Source: Eledone cirrhosa (taxonomy: Eukaryota). From it: a DNA stretch of 64,000 bases. This document shows, piece after piece, positions 740-63,064 of this stretch (its first letter is position 1; every line of letters starts with the position of its first letter). Location: positions 309,442,001 through 309,506,000 of the forward strand of contig OZ024740.1 of the NCBI GenBank assembly GCA_964016885.1. The letters run 5' to 3'. A model generated the notes under the pieces. The model did no database searches. It saw nothing but the letters and a program-made list of their open reading frames with translations, and had not been told where the DNA came from. A program made the translations under genes and the position numbers.

Positions 740-741
<2 letters not shown>

Positions 742-1385
742 GTTTACATATATATAAAGTCATAGATATATATGTGTTTTGCAGCGGGTCACGTTGTGGC
801 TCAATGAAGAATTAATATATTAAATAATCAGAGCTATATATCATAAAACATGTCTATAGAATCACTAGATAAAATATATACCGTTTCCTCTCCCAATTAG
901 CATAATTAACCATATTAAAAAATCAATTAGACCAAGCTCTAAGAATAAAGGCTTCTATGAAGAAATCTCCAACAAATAACCGAAAGCAGCCCCTTCGCGG
1001 CGGTTACGACGGAGTATTTATCGAACATTTCGACAGCATGTATAAATGGACCAGATATACAGTCAACTAAACATAATTAAGTGTAAAATAAACTTGGAAG
1101 AAATGTGTACATATTTATTTACCTCTACTATGGTTTCGTCCGTATTTTAAGACATCCGATAACAGGGGACATCCAGAGCTTCAGATTCATCAGGAGTTAT
1201 CTCAAATTTAGACAATTAATTTTCCAAAGTGATCGCGCCAAGAATACATTCAAAAATGGCTAAGAATCGTGACGTGGCAGCGGTCAAGTTAGAAAGGATG
1301 TGATTAGTTGCTTACGGTTGGTAGGTTTATTGCTAGAAAGCGCAGCCCAATACAGGAAACGGTATATATTTTATCTAGTGATTCT
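740..1385 (-). mobile_element. Older copy of the 673-nt hammerhead element family (degenerate ribozyme at 1122-1196)
   Basis: Similar to 13774-14473 but in permuted order. Minus strand reads CTC-CTGATGA-ATCTG...CGGAC-GAAAC-CATA-GTA-GAG. Confidence 0.75.
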
Positions 1386-1399
1386 ATAGACATGTTTTA

Positions 1400-1462
<63 letters not shown>

Positions 1463-4378: not shown

Positions 4379-4514
4379 ATTATTATTATTTATTTATGTT
4401 CATACACAGAACAAATGTGCTACCTAAGGTTTCAAGGCCCAATATTTACCATATCTCCAGGGGTCAATTGTGACCTAATCTTTAGGTGCTTTACGAGTTT
4501 ATAAGATACCGCTA

Positions 4515-4705
4515 AAAATAAGTGTTTCTACTTTAGGCACAAGGTCAGCAATTACCCAGTGCTTTACTGGTACTTTATTTTATCGACCCCGTAAGGATGA
4601 AAGGCAAAGTCAACCTCGGCGGGATTTGAACTCAGATCGTAAAAGAATGTAACTATGCTGTAAAGCATGGCGTCCGACCCTCTACCGATACTGCCAATCC
4701 ACCGC
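4515..4705 (-). mobile_element. tRNA-derived SINE (major family)
   Basis: A-box TGGCAGTATCGG, B-box GAGTTCAAATCCC, central GCCTTTCATCCTTACGGGGTCGATAAAATAAAGTACCAG (resembles a MetaSINE-type conserved domain). Confidence 0.85.
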
Positions 4706-5130
4706 TAAAAATAATGCATGCTAAAATGCTAGTTTATGAAAAACATATTTTAACTTTGGGCATCTTTACTGTCTCAGGACCAAGTATGCAGATACTATTG
4801 CATTCAAATTCAGAGAACTCTCTGAGCAAACTTAGGATGTTGAGACAGTCAAGATTATTCAGTGCAGCAGTTTCTGCTTCAGATGTTAAATGCTGTGGGT
4901 GAAAGAGGCTTGATATGGCACTGGATGGCAGAAGGTTTAATCAAGAGGTCAAAGTTTCCATCCGAGCAAAAAAGGAGGCTTACAAAGCTTGGCTTGGAAA
5001 TAAGTCTCCTTGTACTTGTGGTACAAGCAGGCAGGAAGAATCTATAAACCCACTGTACAAATTTATGATATTATTCCAATGCAAATAATCAATATTTTAG
5101 AGTATAAATAATAGAATTTCAAAAATAATT

Positions 5131-10568: not shown

Positions 10569-10630
<62 letters not shown>

Positions 10631-10675
10631 AAGTTAAATAAAAAGTCAAATGTTTAAAATTTAGCTTCGTTTATT

Positions 10676-10740
10676 ACTGCTATATATATTTCAGTGACAG
10701 CCATCTTTGGCTGTGACCTCTTCAGGCAGTCCGAATTAGT
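10676..10740 (-). ncRNA. Type-I hammerhead ribozyme motif
   Basis: ACTGC-CTGAAGA-GGTCACAGCCA-AAGA-TGGCTGTCACT-GAAA-TATATA-TA-GCAGT. Perfect stem I, long stem II, palindromic loop 3. The host element (about 10625-10845) is flanked by TA tracts. Confidence 0.85.
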
Positions 10741-11088
10741 GTGGTATAGACAAGTACATATGTTGTTGAGGTGTATAATTTTGTCAATACTCTGATATGC
10801 CCAGTTCCTGGTTGGGTTGTTATTTCACTGAGGAACTGGAATCATATATATATATATGTCATTTCTTTTGCTGTGTTTTACAGCTGACTGTCCTTGCCGA
10901 CATCATCCCATTTAATTGCCTCTTACAACATGAGGGATTTTATATGCCTATGTTAAAAGTTGGGATACACACATCTCTGAACTCGGCTGGTCTCACTTGG
11001 GGATCCAGTCAGATCAATTGGAGATAGTTGCTTTTGATAGGACCTTCCAAGAATAAGTGGGTGAAGAAGAAGGAGGGATACACACAAC

Positions 11089-12575: not shown

Positions 12576-13496
<921 letters not shown>

Positions 13497-13535
13497 ATAT
13501 ATATATATATATGGAAACTCTGCTTCGTAGAATCG

Positions 13536-13632
13536 AGACATATCTGAGGATCTTGCGATTTCAGAATCAGGTTTGATCATTGCATCGATCGTGCCTCGAG
13601 TTGGTCGCCAGAGAAATGATTGTAATATGTCT
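13536..13632 (+). ncRNA. Type-I hammerhead motif with extended stem II
   Basis: AGACATAT-CTGAGGA-TCTTGCGA...TCGCCAGA-GAAA-TGATTG-TA-ATATGTCT. Perfect 8-bp stem I; atypical U-A pair closing stem II. Confidence 0.7.
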
Positions 13633-13773
13633 AAAAAATATTATTCGTAGCACCACTGATTCTCCGTTTCTTATGTAATATTATACTCTGCTCTGTAAGA
13701 GCATTGAGTGCTCAAACGGCCTACAGCTTACGGACGCTTTAAGCATCCCACACCAATTATATATATATATATA

Positions 13774-14473
13774 TCATAAAGTATGTCCATAGAATCATTT
13801 CATAAAATATATACACCATTTCCTCTCCCAATTAGCATAATTAACCACATAAAAAATCAATTAGACCAGGCTATAAGGATAAAGGCTCCTATGAAGAAAT
13901 ATTTGATAAATAAACGACAGCAGCCTCTTCGCGCCCGATGCAATAGAATATTTACCCAACATTTCAACAGCATGTTGAAATCGACTAAATATACCGTCAA
14001 CCATACACAATTAGGTATAAATTTAAAGTTAGAAGAAATGCGTACACTCTTACCATGCTTATGTCCCTACCCTGGGGTTTCGTTCGCGTTTTGTGATATC
14101 CTATTAAGGATAAACTCTCGAGTTTCGAACTCATCAGGAGACAAACTCATAGGACAGGTAATTTTCCAAAGCGATCCCCGCCAGAAATAGATTCAAAAAT
14201 GGCTAAGAATCGTGACATGGCAGTGGTCAAGTTAGAAAGAATGTGATTAGTTGCTTACGGCGAGTGGGCTGGTTGCTAGAAAGCGCAGCCCAATATTTCC
14301 CAAATTGCATCTCAACCTAATGGGAGATTATTAAATATAAAGATTTACATATACACAAACTAAACAATGTCACAGATATATATGTGGCAACCATTCACGA
14401 TGTGGCTCAATGAAGAATTAATAAATTAAATAATCAGAGCAATATTTCATAAAGTATGTCCATAGAATCATTT
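13774..14473 (-). mobile_element. Terminally redundant 673-nt monomer element (27-bp direct repeats) in (TA)n
   Basis: TCATAAAGTATGTCCATAGAATCATTT occurs at 13774-13800 and 14447-14473. Circularly permuted relative to 740-1385. Confidence 0.85.
14062..14143 (-). ncRNA. Type-I hammerhead ribozyme motif
   Basis: TGTCTC-CTGATGA-GTTCG...CGAAC-GAAAC-CCCAGG-GTA-GGGACA. Canonical core, G-C closing stem II, GUA triplet. Confidence 0.85.
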
Positions 14474-14516
14474 GATATATATCTATATATATCTGTGTGT
14501 GTGTGTGCGTGTGCGT

Positions 14517-14549
<33 letters not shown>

Positions 14550-15895
14550 CGTGCGTGCGTACATATACAAATTATAACAAATCAAAACCTCCACTACACA
14601 GGTATAATTAGAACAAAAATCTTAACTAGAAAAAGTCTTCATATTACTGGTTGCTGAATATGCATTAAATTTATTGATCACAGAATAAAACGTAAATTGG
14701 TACCCCGGCAATTAGCTCAGCCTATAAATGGGTGTAAAAAATATCTCAAGAAATTCAATCCAGTCTGCCAACAATATTGATAATATAGATTTCTAACATG
14801 GTAGAAAACCAAGGTACTATGACGTCATTGGTATTCAGTAAGGAAAAGTAGAAATTGAAATAATTATTTCGAAAAATCGGAACTGGTTTCTTATGAAGCA
14901 TCAAAACAACTAGTTTTATATTCAAGAATTGTTTTAAAAGATGGTGGTGGTGAGGGAGGTATCGTCAATGTCGACCTGATTGTAGTGATGATAGTGGTGT
15001 TCTTTAGCTTCTGGAGAATCCTCATCTAGTAGACCGGTACTGAACGGTATTGAAGTAATGATTATCTAATTCAGATCTTCCTTTATTAAAATCCTGACAT
15101 GTGATTTGACTGATATTTGTCAGCTTTTTTAGCATATCAAGCTCCTGCGTAGAGGTTTTGACATTAACTAATGAAAATTGATTTAGAATGTTTTATAGCT
15201 AAAACATTCCCCCCCCCCCCCCAAAGTTAATTTTTAAAGGGAATATACAGATCTAAGTATGAACTGGCAATCTCATTACTTTTAATACCTCCAGGACAAT
15301 AGAGACGAGAAACCCCCCCTTAACAAATATTGACAATCAGCACACTCTAAATATAGGTCCAACGGAGAATTAATGAAATGAAGTATCTGCGAACATTGTG
15401 TAAATATATAAAATCTAAATACATGCAATTACGTTACTACATGCATTTATTGTAGGGGAAATAACTCTAAAACTTGTAATAAGAGTTTTGTCCCTTGAAA
15501 AATTATTATTTTGTTTACTTTCATTACATAGCTATATATTATGTTGGATATTAAGTAGATTCTTTTAATAGTGTTAAGTCAATTTTAAGCGACTCAGATT
15601 TTCTATAAATAAATGCATTTTCGTTACCCGATAGAATTAATGAGAAGCAAATTGTTTTTGATTTAGACCATATGTTATTCAATTAACATATGATATATGC
15701 TTGCTTCACGGGGTGTATATTCGTCAAATTTGTTGGCATATGTTTCTCGGTCTGTGTAGGAGTTATCTAGAATGCTTGAGATAATTTGTTCAACGTTTAT
15801 AACATTAGAACAATGTTTGACTTCTAAAACGATCTCAGACTCCACTCCTCACAACTATTTTAAAACAAATCAAATCATGTACACATCAAGTTCAC

Positions 15896-16211: not shown

Positions 16212-18901
16212 TTAAATACAGTTATACATCTGCTGAGACCAAACTTTTCCAGGACTACATTTCAGTGTAATATAATTATACCAATTGGAGCATTGAATGT
16301 ATTTCTTTGGATCCGGATGGGAAAAACGAGCTTTATATAAATCTCTAGTGCAGGGATTATTATTTAATGGTTCATCCCACGTCGGTTTATCGTTATACTT
16401 TCTACGGGTTACACCCGGAAGTTCACTTGTCCGTACACGATGTATAGAAGCACCGAATACGCAGTCCATTTCATGCTGGTTCCATACAGTTCCAGGAGAG
16501 CAGTTACGTAACACATACGAACCTGGTACAGTGCACTGGATAAATTTCCTTGGGTCTGAATGTGCAAAATAGCCCGATCCCGATTCTATTGCTTCTGCAG
16601 TACACATACTCTTGCCAGTGTTCATACCGCCGTGTTCTTTTTCGAAGATCGTGTGATGCGAATATCTATGTATGCAGGTTTGATTTGCTTGTGACCACAG
16701 GGTACCATTGTCACAAGATTTAACAAAATATGTTCCATGAGTCGTACATTGAACATAGTACTGGGGATCTGGGTGAGCAAAAAACATTACGTTGGCTGCA
16801 ATCTTTTCTCGAGTGCAAGGGTTTTTAATTTTATTAAGTAACGATGGATTATAAACTTGTATAGTTGCGGTTTTAACTGTAGATTTGACTTTAGGTGTGG
16901 TTGTAAGTCTGGCTGCAGTTCTATATGTGACTGTTTGTTCTTCACTTATACAAGTGAGATTTGCTTGTGACCATAAAGCTTTATAATGACATTCTTTTAC
17001 AACGTAAGATCCTGGGTGAGTACATTGTATGAACTTATTAGGATCAGGATGAGGGAAGAATTGACGATGTGTTTCTAAATTCTGTTTAGTGCAATAGGTT
17101 TCAAATGTATTTAATGAAGCTCGTTTGACTGTCCCATGCTTAGACGAATTCTTAAAGGAGATTATTTTTGTTGCCTTGGTAGTATGTTCCTTGGACATAT
17201 AACGACATGTGCGGTCAGGTGCAAACCATACAGCATCATTGCCACATCGCTGTACAAAATATTGTCCCTTTGTTGTGCATTGAATAAACATGTGTCGGTT
17301 AGGGTGAGGGAAAAGAAACTTATTACTGGCTATCGCTTCTTTCGTGCAAGGATTTCTGAAACCATGAGGTTTGGCGGTTTTAGGTGTTCCTCGATATACC
17401 GAGAAAGATCTAAGTGTTGTTGTGGTTGGAGTTTTTGTGGTAGTTGGAGTTTTTGTGGTGGTTGGAGTTGTTTGGGGTCCTGTAAATGTTGGTGTTATGC
17501 ACATCATATCTGGTTGAGACCAAAAAAATAATTTTGGACAGTTTCTTATTACAAAAGATCCTGGTCCCACACATTGAAAATACATAGTTGGATAGCGATG
17601 GGCAAAATATTTGAAGCCTGCAGCAATATTTTCTTTTGTACAGTAACTTCTGTGAAATGTATAGGCAGATCTATTAAACTTCACCACTGTCGTCATGACC
17701 ATTTTTTCAGTGTAGTGCTTCATTGCTTTTGTGCTGGGTTTATGTTTTCTTCTAGGGTAATGCGTAGATATTGGTTTGGTAGCTGCCACATAGACATTAG
17801 TAGAATAAGGTTTCCGTGTTGTTTTTGGCTTAAATAAGGTTACTCGGTTGGTGTAAAATTTACGTATTCCTTTATTTCTGTAAATATATTTAGACGTCAC
17901 ATACATAGTTTTGCTTTTTTTCTCGGTAGATGTTGCTATTGTAGATGTTTTCGAAGATGTGAACTTCGATGGTTGCTTTCTGCTTGGCAGAAATGCTGCA
18001 GTTCGGTAATGTCTAACTATTTTTGACGTTCTTGGAAAGAATGTTGTGCCATTCGGTTTTTCCTTCTTAGGAAGAGTGGGATATGTAACAGGTATACCGA
18101 CCGTTTTCTTTGGTATTTTCGACCAATATATTGTGGAGTTATAGATATTTGTTTGAACTTTTCTTGACGATAAATATTGGGTGGTTGGATAATAATCTTG
18201 TATACAAGTATCACCCTTCTTGGACCACGTTTTACCAGAATCGCAATGTCTTATGACATATATTTCTACACCTGTACATTGAACAAATTTGGTTGAGTCT
18301 GGATGAGAATAATAAAGTAGTTTAGCTTCTATAGCAGCTTTAGTGCAAAGGTGTTTAAAAATATTGAACAAAGGATTTATGGTAGTTTTATCAGAGTTGG
18401 CATGTAAAGTTGTCTTGAATATCAAACGTCTATACTTTAGACGTAAATGCTCTGATGTATTTAAACACTTTGTCTCATTCTGTAGCCAGCTATTTCCTGG
18501 AATACAATCTTTTATAATGAATGAACCAACATCTATACATTGTATGTATTTGGTATTATCTGCATGTGGAAAGTATAACCTTCCAATATCAAACGTTTCC
18601 TTCGTGCAAGGATTAACATAAGCATTTAAAACTGGCATTTGTATAGCTGGTGCCTGTTTTTTATCTTTTTCAGTTTTGGATATATTATCTGACCGATGAA
18701 CGCAGGTTAGTTTACTTTGGAACCAAAATGTACCGAGAGGGCAGTGTTTGACGTAATAATCTGATGACTTTAAGCAATGTATATACATCGTTGGGTTAGG
18801 ATGGGGTAAGGTTATTGCATGAACTCCATCAGTTCTCTCACGACAAATAGTCTTCAGATACTGTTTATACAGAAGATTATCTTTTGTATAAACTTCCGGG
18901 G
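16212..18901 (-). CDS. Terminal coding exon of a secreted multi-domain chitin-binding (CBM14/peritrophin-A-like) protein; nine Cys repeats plus Thr/Lys-rich linkers
   Basis: The 858-aa ORF (16212-18788) stays open 37 codons upstream (PEVYTKDNLLYKQYLKTIC...) to a phase-1 acceptor tttcaaatttcag|CC at 18902/18901. Nine repeats of C-x(11-15)-HP-D-x2-(F/Y)-x-QC-x10-C-x5-W-x7-C. TTPTTTKTPTTTKTPTTTT mucin-like linker. Confidence 0.9.
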
Positions 18902-19960
18902 CTGAAATTTGAAAGAAATAAAATATTAAGAATTTAATTACTGATAGCTAGAAGCAAAGACGACTTATGTATATTTACATACTTGACTAAAATATCTGGT
19001 CCAGATGTACAATATCCGACTTAATTAATTTCGTGCTGTTAATTTCGTCTTATACATTTTTGAGTGAACCAGGTAGCTCTGCTATCATATTGGAAAAGAG
19101 CTAAACATCTAGAGAGTTGCTTCCTCACCTGATCTGGGGGTGACTCCTATATTCGGGGGGGGGGGGGGGGTTGGAGTACTGCAGCACTTCTTCGCCTATA
19201 AGTGTTTAACCCAAGTGTTTTAAAAAGGAAATAAGACTATGGAAGTGAAGAATACTTATGATTGGAGTGAAGAAGACATCAGATTTGAAGGAAATGATTC
19301 ATACCCATATTCATATGCACATATAGAAGTTAGTAAGGTCAATCCAGTGAAGGTTAGATAACCTAAAGCAAATGAAGTGTTGCACCAAATAAAATGAAAA
19401 GTAAAAAGAAAAAGGAGTTATTGGTGGAAAAATAGTCTCAGATAATCGGTGATTCGATACACAGGTGAGATGATTGTCACACTAAATGTAGATAGTAAGA
19501 AGTATGTTCAGAGGAGAAAAAGCAGGAAAATTCTCCTTAGAAACAAATATAGAGTCAAAGGATCGTTGAGATATAGGTAGGTGGGAATCGAGAAAAAAGA
19601 AAAGGGGAAGGATCAAGCAACAATGCCAAAGGGAATTCACTGGAAGTATTTTACAATTATCCAAATGAGCTGTAGCATGAAAGGAGAAATGGCGGCTTGG
19701 TGTGTGATAAGGTCAACTTTGCAACATCCTGTATAATATATATAGTGATAATCTTCGAGACACTCCTATCCTACTAATGTATGAGATACCGAATCGACAG
19801 AACGTGAAGCAGAATTTGATCTAAGTGACCTTCCAATTAAAAGAATCTGGAACTTCATCAAAAGAGTACGATCAAAGAGTCCGCAAGGCTCGATCCTGGT
19901 GCCGTACAAAGATTACAAGAAGTGCACCATCAAACTACTTTTCATTCTTAGAAGAGCTTA

Positions 19961-24131: not shown

Positions 24132-24718
<587 letters not shown>

Positions 24719-31376: not shown

Positions 31377-31379
31377 CAC

Positions 31380-31622
31380 AAAAAAAAGAGAATCAGTGTT
31401 GCGACGGATGGAATTTATTGGACATATTACAATCGTTTCTCTGGCGACCAGCTCTAGGCACGATCGATGTGATGATCGAACTTGACTCTGAAATCGCAAG
31501 GTCCTCAGATACGTCTTGATCTACGAAGCAGATTTTCCAAGACGTATCTGAGGACCTTGCGATTTCAGAGTCAGGTTCGATCATCACACCGATCGTGCCT
31601 CGAGCTGGTCGCTAGAGAAACG

Positions 31623-31628
<6 letters not shown>
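31380..31628. mobile_element. Fold-back pair of hammerhead-bearing fragments (same family as 13513-13757)
   Basis: Inverted arms at about 31428-31518 and 31538-31628. Minus-strand hammerhead at 31421-31515; the plus-strand copy stops at ...GAAACGATTGTA and runs into (TA)n. Confidence 0.75.
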
Positions 31629-49670: not shown

Positions 49671-49676
<6 letters not shown>

Positions 49677-50580
49677 TAATATGTAAGTGATGAAACACAG
49701 ATACCAACACATCTGTATATATATTGCAAAAGAAAAATTTAGCCAGATTGAAGTATACTAATTATTATACTACAGTTTGTCCATATCGATTTAGAATAAT
49801 AAATCAACGGAGACGAACTGTATTGCCAAAAGGCCGTGATGTTTAGACACATTTAAATTTCAAAATCAAACCTGTTCCGTAGATAAGTTTAGACTTTAAG
49901 ATCCAATTTGTATACTTCAATCTGGCTAAATTTTTCTTTTGCAATATATATACAGATGTGTTGGTATCTGTGTTTCATCACTTACATATTAATTTATACA
50001 CTGCTCAGGGGATATTTTTCCTCATTCGAGCTGATTCCATTGTAAAAGAATTCATTACCTTATTAATTTTAACTGCTCCTAGTTTGAGCTGCAAACCGCC
50101 TCATATATACGACTGTTATTTCTAGCAGTACGGTTATGAGACTAGTTAGATACTGTAAAGCCATGTGCGTCACGCAGTCTTTTAAATTATTTAGAAGTGA
50201 AGCATATCAATTTGTCTCTGGATGTTTACTGAGGAGAGCGGGACATGATATTCCTACACTTATTTAACTCGAAACATATTTGGATCTTAAAGTCTAAACT
50301 TATCTACGGAACAGGTTTGATTTTGAAATTTAAATGTGTCTAAACATCACGGCCTTTTGGCAATACAGTTCGTCTCCGTTGATTTATTATTTTAAATCGA
50401 TATGGACAAACTGTAGTATAATAATTAGTATACTTCAATCTGGCTAAATTTTTCTTTTGCAATATATATACAGATGTGTTGGTATCTGTGTTTCATCACT
50501 TACATATTAATTTATACACTGCTCAGGGGATATTTTTCCTCATTCGAGCTGATTCCATTGTAAAAGAATTCATTACCTTA

Positions 50581-50585
<5 letters not shown>
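49671..50585 (+). mobile_element. Terminally redundant 518-nt monomer (158-bp direct repeats) preceded by an inverted segment of about 235 bp, in (TA)n
   Basis: 49910-50067 equals 50428-50585. 49671-49906 is the reverse complement of about 50280-50515. Confidence 0.85.
50221..50348 (+). ncRNA. Type-I hammerhead ribozyme motif with full stem III and large loop 3
   Basis: GATGTTTA-CTGAGGA-GAG...CTC-GAAA-CATATTT-(50 nt)-AAATGTG-TC-TAAACATC. Perfect 8-bp stem I; GUC triplet. Confidence 0.85.
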
Positions 50586-52392: not shown

Positions 52393-53240
52393 TAGATTAA
52401 ATTTAATAATTTTTGCACAAGCTATTTAATACATGGCTTCAAGGAAGCCACCCGGCCTACTTCAAATTCCCCTCTACTATAGGAAGATTGTTTTAATATA
52501 TGAAAATGGCTCAAGTGACAAACCCCTATCTGGCGCTAGATAACAGCCACATAATCTTAAAATCGAACCATGCATTTTTAAATAAGAAGCTAATCTTAGA
52601 AATGATCACTGCTGGAATGTTATCGATCTTCTCTTTGCTCAACCATAGCATACTCTGTTCTAAAAGAAACTAAATATGAAATGAATAAAACTAGAAACAC
52701 AAAGCCTAACGTTATAATTGACCGGCAGTACAGATATCTATTTTAAAACATTTCGAACAAGAAACTAACTTCAAATGTTGTCAACGATGGTAACAATCAT
52801 AACAAATTATTGTAACGTACAATAGGTTATCAGAAAAAATGGTATAAGGAAGATAGCAACAATGAAATGAAACATTAGCTGTAGGTTTCATTATCTCTTC
52901 CAAGAGGCAGAATATTAGAAGAAATCAATTATAGTTGAGTTGAGATTTGACATGTCTAGACATAATAATTGAAAATTTGGTTCACACTGATTCAACGTTT
53001 TTCAATATTATCGTTTCTAAAGATCCGTGTTATTCTTGGAATTCGACTTTGTTTAATTTCTTAGTATTCATCGGTGTGAAAAAAACAAAACATAATTGAC
53101 AAAGTACAAGCTGCGAAAAATGTAAAAAAAATAAATTAAACGCTGTAAACCTCACGAAAGACATGAAAATAAAACGCAGACGTTCTAAATAACAAGGAAA
53201 GTAACCATAGTAAAGTCCTGTAGAAGCCTTTTATATTAAA

Positions 53241-54179
53241 CTAGCAGAATGGCCCGGCAGTGCTCGGGATTTGCTCTAGGGTTCTTATATATTTGATATA
53301 TATTTATCCTTATCGAGCCTCGTGAAATAAATACGTTTGTTTATATTTTGTTATTGTGTATGCCAAAATATCTGTACACGAATATATAATTATATATATA
53401 TATATATATTAAAATAACAGATTAAAGTTTAAGCAAAGAATCGCTGCTTTCACCCTTAACGGGATCTTCTGAAACTAAAAAAATCACTCTGTGAACGCAG
53501 AAGTAAATATTTCGAAATGTTTTTCTGTATGCAAAAATATCTGTCAGTGATGCATGTGATTATGTAATCGCCAGCCTTTTTTGTTTATATTTTGTGTTTG
53601 TGTATGCAAAAATATCTGTACACGAATATATATATTAAAATAACATATTAAAGTTTAAGCAAAGAATCGCTGCTTTCACCCTTAACGGGATTTTCTGAAA
53701 CTAAAAAAAAATCAATGTGTGAACGCAGATATAAATATTTCGAAAAACGTTGCAACCGAAGGAAAACAGGAAGACGATACTTTGGTTCGTGAAGACGTTC
53801 CCTGGCATAAGAATAAATATATATATATACACACACTATATATACATATATACACACACTATATATACATATATACACGCACACACGTCAAAATGACGTA
53901 ATGCAGATAGTCAGGCATACAGACAGATATTATAAGGGCACGACGTTATATCTATGTATCTATCTAAAAAGAGAAAGACTAAGAATTATAGAGAGAGATC
54001 GCTAAATCGCCTAATGCAGTCCCTAGGGCATTGAAAATTTGAAATTGTTTTGGCTCAAAACACTCACGGGACCATAAGTATTACATGTGTAAAGTTTGAA
54101 AAAACTCAGTTGGGTGGTTCTCGAGTTTTAGTGATTGTACAGACAGACAGACATACATTCTCTGTTTTAGTAATATAGA
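53241..54179 (-). mobile_element. Non-autonomous Helitron, copy 1
   Basis: Minus strand 5'-TCTATATTACTAAAA...(TCTG)n...CCCGAGCACTGCCGGG hairpin...CTAG-3', followed by T. Confidence 0.8.
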
Positions 54180-54557
54180 CTAGCAGAATGGCCCGGCGTT
54201 TCTCGGGATTTGCTCTAGGATTCTTATATATTTGATATATATTTATCCTTATCGAGCCTCGTGAAATCAATACGTTTGTTTATATTTTGTTATTGTGTAT
54301 GCAAAAATATCTGTACACGAATATATAATTATATATATATATGCATATATATATATATATATATATATAACAGTACAGAGAGGTACGGAATACCTCGACC
54401 TCGGAATGGTGTCTACATTTTGTGCTTATAAAAAAATTCGTCGTACATTACTAGGGTTTTTTTTACCGTACGAAGGAAATCAATACTTTATCGCGAAATA
54501 AATACTTTTGTTTATATTTTGTTATTGTGTATGCAAAAATATCTGTACACGAATAAA

Positions 54558-54607
<50 letters not shown>

Positions 54608-55075
54608 TAACAGATTAAAGTTTAATCAAAGAATCGTTGTTTTCACCCTTAACTGGATCTTCTAAAACTAAACTAAAAAAAATCAACCTGTGAACGCAGA
54701 AGTAAATATTTCGAAAAACGTTACACACACTATATATATATATATACACACACACTATATATACATATATACATATATACACACAATCACACAGCTACGT
54801 CATAATGTCATAATGCAGACATCCATGTGTACAGGGAGATATTATAAGGGCGCAACGTTATATCTATGTATCTATCTAAAAAGAGAAAGACTAAGAATTA
54901 TAGAGAGAGATCGCTAAATCGCCTAATGCAGTCCCTAGGGCATTGACCATTTGAAATTGCTCAAAACACTCACAGGACCATAAGTATTACATGTGTAAAG
55001 TTTGAAAAATATCGGTTGGGTGGTTCTCGAGTTTTAGTGATCGGACAGACAGACAGACAGACAGATAGATATTCT
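54180..55075 (-). mobile_element. Non-autonomous Helitron, copy 2 (head-to-tail with copy 1, extreme 5' end missing)
   Basis: Repeats the copy-1 sequence; the minus-strand junction is exactly CTAG|TC. Confidence 0.75.
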
Positions 55076-56865: not shown

Positions 56866-57180
56866 AAAAAAAAGAAATAGGATTTCGCTTCAAGAAGCGA
56901 AATCCTATTTCTTTTTTATTATAAGTTGAGCCAACTTTTGCAGCTTCATATGCAAATGAGATTAATCACCTCATTTACACAGACGAGAATAGTATATTCT
57001 CAGCTGTCTTCTAGTCCAGCAGTCGCAAGTGGTGGGCGGGACCGTCCTGACGAAGGCCAGTTAAGCCTGAAATTCATAGACGGTTGTGCCCCTTGCTTCT
57101 GCTGGACATCACCAGTGTTTGCATAGCTACGGCTTCCTAAAACTGTATTTTTTTGGAGATACAAAATATTCATACATAAT
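56866..57180 (+). mobile_element. Second copy of the 335-nt family with a 24-bp snap-back hairpin at its 5' end
   Basis: Similar to 24258-24570 (TAAGTTGAGCCAACTT..CAGCTTCAT.TGCAAAT.AGATTAATCA). Hairpin 56868-56891 / 56894-56917; TA tracts on both sides. Confidence 0.8.
57040..57085 (+). ncRNA. Minimal type-I hammerhead ribozyme motif
   Basis: ACCGTC-CTGACGA-AGGC-CAGTTAA-GCCT-GAAA-TTCA-TA-GACGGT. Confidence 0.85.
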
Positions 57181-60377: not shown

Positions 60378-61371
60378 ATGTATGCCATTTCCACCTCGCA
60401 CACTGTCGTGAGTGCCACGCCCACTAAGAAAAGTGGTGGAGGGAAGGTAGGAGTACAAAGCTTGCAACCTTCCCCCCTCGCATTATCGAAAAACGTTGAA
60501 AATAATGAAACCACGAAACCAAACCCGGTAAATAATACCAGCACCAACAACAAGAACAATGACAATAACACCACAACCAACAACTGCAACAATAGCAACA
60601 CCAAGGAAAACATGAACAATATTACCAACAGTGACAACAACAGCAGCAACAAAAAAGACAACAACACCAAACGACGTTCGCACAGACTGTAAAATAAAAC
60701 GAACTATACACGCCAATAGACATAACAAATGCTAAACAACTACTACAAGACGCAAAACAATTCGTGACTTTTGGCGAAAACGGTGCTTTTAGCATCAATT
60801 CTCCACAGGAATTACGTAGAGAGGCTGTCCTGAAAACCACAGTTTTCAGGACAATATCGAACGAAACAAAAAACCAGCTCAATTATCACAAAATGAAATT
60901 GTGCTGGTTCTAAAAGATGCAATCAAGGACATAGCCTTCATACAAAAAGGTAAACTGTTTGGTAGTATTTCGGTGCTAATGAACAACCAGTCAACAGCAC
61001 AAAAGTACTCGGTATCACCCATTGTGTCCCCCCGCTTCACCTTTTTCCCCACATACAGGGGAAAAAGGACACAAAGAATAAAAATAATGAGTATCACACC
61101 AAATGTAAATATTTGGTGGATACTATGTGGAATCATTGACTTTGATGAAGACAAGATAATTTCAATAGGAAAGTCCTCCGGAGGTGTATTTGGTGGGACC
61201 AGCGTAGAAGTTCTGGTGCAAATGAGCCCAGAACGAATAGCGAATATCCCACAACGCGTGCCTCTGGACGGGCTAACTTATATAAACATTTCAGTGGAGG
61301 GAGCGGCCGTCATGTTACCACTGCTTAAGCAGAGGTCACCTGAGGGCTGCCTGTCCTCAATTAACGAGTAA
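60378..61371 (+). pseudogene. Tx1-like ORF1 remnant with Asn/Thr-rich N-terminus and zinc knuckle
   Basis: Broken frames 60378-60692 and 60901-61371. A shifted frame at about 61301-61354 reads RPSCYHCLSRGHLRAAC (C-x2-C-x4-H-x4-C). Confidence 0.7.
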
Positions 61372-61432
61372 AAAAAAAAGGCTCTTCTGCCAACCCCGAA
61401 CACAACAACACAACCATCGGTACCTGGATGCG

Positions 61433-63064
61433 GTGTTCGCGGCGGCAGGCTTCGGACCCGTTTTCAGAGGCTGGATTGCTGCAATGCACAGCAGCAACAC
61501 CTGCTCGAGGGTCAAGGTGAGCGGCTACCTCTCGGAGCCGTTCCAAATCACGCGATCCATCCGACAGGGATGCCCTCTCTCTTCCCTCCTGTATGTGCTG
61601 GTTCTCGAGCCACTACTGCGGAAGCTGGAGCTGTTGCAGGGCATCCCCTTGGAACCGGGATTGCGGAAAGCGGTGTCGGCCTACGCTGATGACGTGACAG
61701 CAATGGTCTCGTGCGCCTCGGAAATCGGGCAGATCGGCACCTTACTGGAGGAATATGAAAGGTTTACAGGAGCCAAGCTGAACCGGAACAAGTCCGTCGG
61801 TTTGCAACTCGGAACGTGGAGAGACAAACCGATGCCCTCCGACGGCATCGTCGGACGCTGGACGGAGGGACCGGTGAAGCTGCTCGGGGTCTGGTTCAGA
61901 CCGGACCTCCAGGTGGAGAAAAACTGGGACGAGGTAACGGGCAAGGTGTTTGCACTCGCCAAGAAGTGGGCCGAGTGCAAACTATCCCTGAAAGGTCGAG
62001 CGGAGGTGGCGAACGCTTATATAGCGTCCGTCATCTACTACCGCTTGACCGTCGTGCCTTGCCCAGAGAAAACACTCGCCAAAATGGAGCGCGCGCTCTT
62101 CCGATTTCTTTGGAAGAAGCGGGCTCCTTTGGTGAGAAGATCCATCTGCTGTCAACACCCTTCGAACGGAGGGCTGGGCATGCCGTGGCTGACGATGCGT
62201 AGACACGCATTAAGGCTACGGCACCTCCAGGTATTCCTCACCGGTGAGCCGGTGTGGGCCCTGTTTGTGAGGCGAGCCTTTCCGAGACTCGTCTCACTCA
62301 CCGAGCTGCAATCATGGGTCAAGCAAAGACCGAGAAAAGTGGGCGACTGGCACATTGAATGTGCCCAGGCGCTCACGGCCCTCTGGCAAGCGGATCCGGC
62401 AATCAGTGGAGACTCAACCTCAACATTCTATAGAGGGTTGGTGCGCAGTAAGTGCGACGACGCTCTCGGAGAGGCTCTGGGCATGGAGGTAGATGAGCTG
62501 GCCAGTCTGTTCGGTAGGACGTTTAGCCCGGGACCGATGGACAACTTCCAAAAGTCCCTGGCTTGGCAATGTTACCGAGGAGCTCTACCCGTTCGGGACA
62601 AGCTCTACAGGCACGGGCGCCCGGGTAGGGACTCCTCAAAGAAGATCTGTCCGAGATGCGTGCGTGACGAGGAAACTGTCGCACACGCATTCGTACACTG
62701 CCCGGGCGTTGCTGACCTGTGGGGCTATGTGGAACGACTACTGTCGCGGGTGGGACCAATCCGGTTGACCACCGAGAACACTGTCACGATCAAACCGCCT
62801 CCCCCTTTCAAAAACGAACGAGAGGCGGTTTCCCTCTGTGTGATAGCTATGGCGAAAGAAGTTGTATGGTGGACAAGGTTGAAAGGGCTGAGGTCAGACA
62901 CCTTTCTCTCCGGCCAACAACTGGTCTTTTTTTTCAAGTACCACTTTAGAAGAAGGATCAGAATAGAGAGAGAGGTGCTCTACCCCAGCAAGTTTTATGA
63001 AAGATGGGTGAAAGTAGCGAGAATGGCCCGAGTGAATGGGCCTTCTCTCTATATCAGCCTGTAG
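61433..63064 (+). pseudogene. Tx1-like ORF2 fragment: reverse transcriptase C-terminal half plus C-terminal CCHC domain
   Basis: RSIRQGCPLS, AYADDV, LNRNKS, GGLGMP, CPRC..EETVAHAFVHC. Starts abruptly at (D)HRYL; no endonuclease domain present. Confidence 0.9.

Follow-up and report, generated by a model that had tools for sequence, protein, structure and literature searches.

Penelope-like elements (PLEs) leave insertions that are defined by partial tandems, 5' inversions, tails and a bias towards (TA)n, and the function of the hammerheads in these elements is still called unclear (PMC8557442). Their tails have been explained by internal starts of reverse transcription (RT), with uncut RNA as the main substrate in vitro (PMC11167929). 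For animal retrozymes an origin from pLTRs is reported, their units measuring 51-972 bp and many of them being monomers (bioRxiv 10.64898/2026.07.22.740005; Li, Clavereau & Pollet), and animal non-LTR retrozymes are described as repeats that carry a type I hammerhead and are expressed in circular form (PMC7229834; Cervera & de la Pena 2020). Retrotranscription of more than one unit from circles was proposed for PLEs in 2014 (PMC4209133).

Here we look at an element with a 673-nt unit at position 13774 of a 64-kb stretch of DNA, the whole of which is referred to as the window. There is little doubt about its class, that of a non-autonomous PLE-type element and solo non-LTR retrozyme. Judged against the systems above it can be taken to act as a non-autonomous PLE derivative, a known kind of element, and the family itself is newly described. 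No published account of this family was found in the octopus, Penelope and hammerhead literature, with Repbase, Dfam and most subscription papers lying outside the scope of the search.

Like animal non-LTR retrozymes the element is built on a head-to-tail unit that is non-coding, low in GC and equipped with a single type I hammerhead (PMC7229834), its GC content lying below 45-50%, and for such retrozymes dispersed monomers have been described and mobilisation by PLEs proposed (PMC7229834; bioRxiv 10.64898/2026.07.22.740005). At 673 nt it is unlike the usual members (150-450 nt), yet it falls inside the preprint's 51-972 range. By the rule of the same preprint the 13774 copy, with 1.05 units, is a 'solo', and two or more tandem units that each bear a ribozyme are not present at this locus; its long loop II differs and the element is known here from DNA alone. 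With those EN+ PLEs that have a (TA)n bias (Neptune, Hydra, Naiad; PMC8557442) it shares a partial tandem, a 5' inverted truncated copy, (TA)n targets with no discernible target site duplication (TSD) and possibly an optional 3' extension. The partial tandem, the inverted truncated copy and (TA)n insertion without a clear TSD are traits of PLE derivatives. Unlike autonomous EN+ PLEs the 13774 family shows no RT or GIY-YIG ORF among the 87 frames searched, and its extension is ~100 nt compared with 30-40. Naiads fit less well as a helper because canonical hammerheads are absent from them. The short palindromic-type helix III resembles that of PLE pLTR hammerheads (PMC4209133). The anole Poseidon element PAc (PMC11167929) likewise has two internal RT start sites downstream of the ribozyme and AT-rich targets. 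PAc is however autonomous with an AC-rich start lacking homology to the target, whereas the 13774 family ends at TA motifs that may pair with theirs. Plant LTR retrozymes are similar in size, near 700 nt (PMC7229834; 2026 preprint), but are described with type III ribozymes in two LTRs, PBS/PPT, a 4-bp TSD and GC above 55%, in contrast to the single type I ribozyme and GC of 0.36 found here.

Architecture of the 13774 copy and its paralogue

The features of the 13774 copy and of a paralogue at 741-1408 are as follows.

13774-14446, minus strand (hammerhead sense): one 673-nt unit, non-coding, 36% GC, from sequence comparison
13758-13774, no strand: (TA)n tract at the copy's 3' end, the likely target, from the sequence
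13774-13800, minus strand: redundant segment, 3'-terminal copy (3' end site 1), equal to the end of the paralogue's inverted arm
14062-14143, minus strand: type I hammerhead with helix I 14143-14138/14067-14062, core 14137-14131, helix II 14130-14126/14086-14082, GAAA 14081-14078, helix III 14078-14069 and a predicted cut after A14068
14176-14295, minus strand: conserved block upstream of the ribozyme, 93-97% identity to the paralogue over 14195-14254
14332-14446, minus strand: permuted block, 5' in this copy and a ~100-nt 3' extension in the paralogue, from the paralogue match
14447-14477, minus strand: 5' partial repeat, corresponding to the final ~31 nt of the unit before it, 27 of them exact, from repeat comparison and family reads
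14478-14493, no strand: TA-rich right flank, then (TG)n at 14494-14557, from the sequence
741-1353, minus strand: main body of the paralogue, 3' end (site 2) at (TA)n 683-738, from sequence comparison
C3 at 1193 and cut site 1126, minus strand: degenerate hammerhead of the paralogue, from a descriptor scan
1354-1408, plus strand: 5' inverted arm of the paralogue, ending at site 1 on (TA)n 1402-1460, 55/55 identical to 835-889

The unit gave no relevant Pfam hit. The first-pass annotation had described a copy that begins and ends with the same 27 bp, and this direct repeat is exact (13774-13800 and 14447-14473, spacing 673). Extended to 13769-13804 and 14442-14477 the two sides agree at 34 of 36 positions. 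At 13801 the family reads have G, like 14474 (136135.7/136376.2 in sequencing run X1 and 306/316 reads in run X6), therefore the true redundancy is ~31 bp rather than 27, reaching 14477, and the left copy carries one private change at 13801. The copy represents ~1.05 units of the head-to-tail map and spans an intact cleavage site. A host TSD was ruled out as the source of the repeat, since the same sequence lies inside the paralogue (842-868) and is deeply covered in family reads. Nor has the locus been cut from a long satellite, as it is flanked by microsatellite and by unrelated elements and no long array is present; on both points the initial reading stood. Another hammerhead element, 13513-13757, shares the (TA)n tract at 13758-13774, its 3' end facing that of the 13774 copy.

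Circular permutation relative to the paralogue was likewise borne out by two blocks, 14332-14487 against 731-880 (79%, E 1e-33) and 13768-14295 against 835-1352 (79%, E 5e-121). The paralogue had been placed at 740-1385, and these limits had to be corrected to a body at 741-1353 followed by a 100% identical inverted arm at 1354-1408. This 5' inversion and the (TA)n targeting, which put the element among the PLEs, were missed in the earlier reading.

Three 3' ends were mapped in all, falling at two positions ~105 nt apart. The paralogue's inverted arm and the 13774 copy have one and the same 3' site, and at this site 1 both copies end at the family's ATATAT motif. All three ends adjoin (TA)n, and each coincides with a TA motif (5-7 nt) belonging to the element, of which the 673-nt unit has only about 6 clusters; no clear TSD accompanies these microsatellite insertions. 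The termini are thus partly fixed, site 1 being shared and each 3' end lying at a TA motif beside (TA)n. In this respect the proposal of different breakpoints on one circular map is not supported in the form first given, and fixed termini had been named beforehand as evidence against it.

The conserved block at 14176-14295 may be an internal promoter. Among splice signals an acceptor-like motif was common to 13899 and 965, but donor-like motifs were not at homologous places, and we propose no intron. A 136-aa plus-strand frame had no family match. As a locus this is an unremarkable copy of some age, one among several built alike in the 64-kb window.

The hammerhead ribozyme

As first annotated, the unit contains one hammerhead, a type I ribozyme on the minus strand with C3 at 14137 and GUA at 14070-14068. 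The strict descriptor matched 0/5000 dinucleotide shuffles of the unit and the relaxed one 1/5000. Helix I has 6/6 pairs, helix II 5/5 and helix III 3-4, and loop II is unusually long at 39 nt with an inner hairpin. This loop is a likely explanation for the Rfam outcome, in which nothing in the window reached the gathering score and none of 7 matches up to E 10 was a hammerhead. The active fold (-26.1 kcal/mol) lies 0.6 kcal/mol above the free minimum (-26.7 kcal/mol), and a shorter stretch of 111 nt did not outdo shuffles in its fold (z 0.36). The top of helix III is near-palindromic, with self-pairing as a dimer at -11.4 kcal/mol, and relatives with a fully palindromic helix III (ACCAUGGU) were found at loose ends in runs X1 and X5. 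A short palindromic helix III is regarded as a mark of metazoan hammerheads working as dimers (PMC4209133).

The paralogue keeps all core letters and the GUA where local identity is 43-73%. It retains 5/6 pairs in helix I and 4/5 in helix II, with one double change in each; the G10.1-C11.1 pair is gone and it is predicted not to fold. This comparison of helices between copies is based on motif-anchored pairs. In a MAFFT alignment of these two sequences only, shuffles matched the pair count in 243/500 cases and the paralogue's helices I and III were out of register.

Folded as a circle the unit reached -168.0, compared with -150.5 +/- 7.1 for shuffles, and 0/60 shuffles were as low. The paired fraction equalled that of shuffles (0.61 vs 0.62), therefore the circle fold is not rod-like. 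With one ribozyme the 13774 locus cannot release unit-length RNA, and the predicted 673-nt circle would need another source locus.

Related elements in the window and in sequencing reads

By relaxed descriptor the window contains 7 hammerhead motifs, whereas 100 shuffles gave 0.02 on average. Partial tandems at (TA)n number four, the 13774 copy included; the three others have periods of 335, 518 and 593 with exact redundancies of 30, 158 and 226 bp. Inverted arms occur in three other elements. None of 87 frames from 8 element regions of the window matched RT or GIY-YIG.

The period-593 partial tandem (12678-13496) has a redundancy identical at 226/226 positions and (TA)n on both sides and looks recent; no hammerhead core was found in it. 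A second hammerhead family comprises 31377-31626 and 13513-13757, which have the same 5' start, the 13.5 kb copy being ~70 nt longer at the 3' end. In the former, two ribozymes stand back to back, one on each strand, and the inverted arm stops exactly at the GUA cut site 31626-31628 and is followed by (TA)n; this may reflect priming at the end of a cleaved RNA, or else microhomology at TA. The third family (24246-24610 and 56867-57178) has a 335-bp unit with a 30-bp terminal redundancy and a palindromic helix III; its paralogue ends ~35 nt earlier with a short inversion at the start, a classic tail. The period-518 partial tandem (49674-50585) has two inversions, one of 237 bp and one of 94 bp, nested between (TA)n tracts, and a hammerhead-like core at 50229 that did not pass the stricter descriptor. 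An inverted pair of 211 bp (96%) at 1462-2103 carries a hammerhead at 2004 (plus strand) and has a (TA)n tract in common with the paralogue at 741-1408, and 10626-11080 holds a hammerhead at 10725 (minus strand) with palindromic helix III.

Other features of the window include a 911-codon open frame with repeated chitin-binding CBM_14 domains (16212-18947, minus strand, E 1.3e-30) and a 592-codon open frame with RVT_1 and zf-RVT (61286-63064, plus strand), a non-LTR retrotransposon unrelated to the PLE question. The chitin-binding gene and the microsatellites mark the host as an animal, and the look of its commonest short repeat suggests a cephalopod. A dispersed SINE-like repeat of ~190 bp lies at 4511-4716 and at least 12 other places, and ARAGORN detected no tRNA in it. 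Nested repeats with TA tracts and GACA runs at 53237-55063 show a possible resemblance to non-autonomous Helitron-type elements.

Eight sequencing runs came into consideration, 5 with family sequence from 3 studies and organisms and 3 added by species label, none of the eight being on record as RNA, and four of them were analysed (X1, X4, X5 and X6). At a fit of 80% or more we recovered 3996 contigs from X1, 64 from X4 and 5 from X5, together with 4273 reads from X6. This is a high-copy family in two species with traces in a third, although read depth gives no copy number. Four joints across X1, X4 and X6 go back by 662-673 nt, therefore the head-to-tail junction continues in other DNA copies. 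Four opposite-strand joints occur in X1, one contig each, and three of these four inversion joints have one side at 14038-14046, near the cut site, where alignments also break by divergence. In both X1 and X4, contigs connect the permuted block with the upstream block and contain no intervening ORF. Among the pieces from the four runs neither a whole unit nor a two-ribozyme dimer was seen.

Depth in the well-conserved blocks of X1 was 507k, 225k and 75k from 3' to 5', but overall X1 showed no steady 5' fall and X6 showed none; the dip at the ribozyme tracks the divergence of the 13774 copy. Repeats at 13690-13770 in the left flank were left out of depth. Read-end piles in X6 (6 of 11) were considered as element ends and rejected, as all fall at AATT, the library cut sites (13839-42, 13859-62, 14009-12 and 14303-06). 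A 694-bp contig of organism C (X5, record 19) has only 14215-14250 in common with the element, the most conserved part of the upstream block, and this suggests a motif kept across families. Pattern scans found no copies of the family in metagenome contigs, viral contigs or prokaryote genomes.

Template and mode of copying

On balance we consider it somewhat more likely than not that the 1.05-unit copy was put into a TA microsatellite, likely in trans by PLE RT and endonuclease, from an uncut linear tandem transcript. A PLE protein would nick (TA)n, and the DNA end would then act as primer at an internal position of the RNA. Two or more UA-rich sites that lie 3' of the ribozyme would be available for this, with site 1 at 13774 and site 2 about 105 nt further on. 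Copying would go back through the intact ribozyme and stop at variable points, ~31 nt past one unit in the 13774 copy. In the paralogue it would stop before a full unit, and an inverted second product would then be started at site 1. The apparent circular permutation would arise because two fixed 3' starts are combined with variable 5' stops on a head-to-tail template. The stretch from 13774 to 14477 crosses the intact cut site and a full unit, therefore the template should be an uncut tandem transcript or a ligated circle; a cleaved linear monomer, which would yield about 294 nt, cannot suffice. The earlier proposal of RT on a circular or tandem RNA thus survives in its requirement for such a template; the circle as such stays a proposal, and a one-ribozyme locus cannot release unit-length RNA.

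Several observations sit uneasily with the PLE account. No PLE protein or autonomous partner was found in the 87 frames, the 3' extension exceeds the published tail of 30-40 bp, and neither X1 nor X6 shows the steady fall in depth toward the 5' end. The single PLE studied in vitro started RT at a site without homology to the cut DNA (PMC11167929), unlike the TA pairing proposed here. As to a linear template, all junction joints in the reads could stem from paralogue-like copies and a circular one fits the same DNA equally well. It is conceivable, if rather unlikely, that the same PLE machinery used a ribozyme-made, ligated 673-nt circular RNA and reverse transcribed it once round plus 31 nt. 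The more-than-unit copy over an intact cleavage site, the accessibility of the active fold and the stability of the circular fold relative to shuffles are consistent with such a template, and animal retrozyme circles have been documented and proposed as RT templates (PMC7229834; PMC4209133). Against this the 3' ends cluster at common sites, the fold is not rod-like, and ribozyme cleavage is reported as dispensable for the anole PLE in vitro (PMC11167929). The neighbouring 593-bp partial tandem has the same architecture without a hammerhead core, and ribozyme-made circles are hence not required for the pattern. The linear tandem is favoured over the circle because of this ribozyme-free neighbour and because uncut RNA was the main substrate of the anole PLE in vitro. 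That the family as a whole spread via a ribozyme-made 673-nt circle, with the PLE enzyme priming nicked (TA)n on internal UA motifs, is more doubtful still.

Two further explanations part with a self-spreading RNA family or with RNA altogether. The unit could be no more than a terminal pseudo-LTR belonging to an autonomous PLE, with the copies as 5'-truncated products of that PLE, which we judge improbable even though every structural trait is in common and most PLE insertions are said to be cut down to one terminal repeat (bioRxiv 10.64898/2026.07.22.740005). Among the ends listed, here and in contigs of two organisms, what lies upstream of the conserved block is the 3' extension of a previous unit and no ORF end; a rare copy with an ORF may still occur among 441 further loose ends. 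The lack of RT or GIY-YIG among the frames also argues against it, as does, weakly, the 136-aa frame with no longer relative among 209 candidates. An origin at the DNA level, by host target duplication, as a satellite slice or as a rolling-circle DNA element, appears very improbable. The direct terminal repeat and the presence of head-to-tail junctions in DNA would agree with it, but in the paralogue the repeat lies inside the element, the flanks contain no long array, and the conserved ribozyme and 5' inversions indicate an RNA stage; the TSD version is largely refuted.

The choice between a circle and an uncut tandem transcript as template, on which we favour the latter, is also unsettled in the literature (PMC4209133 vs PMC11167929). 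If a circle with (TA)n priming were the template, genomic copies would directly document rolling reverse transcription over more than one unit, and the purpose of PLE hammerheads would be shown. Given an assembly, the role of the hammerhead in PLEs could be tested by computation only, using a family that is high in copy number, whose 3' starts and 5' stops can be mapped and whose cut site is known.
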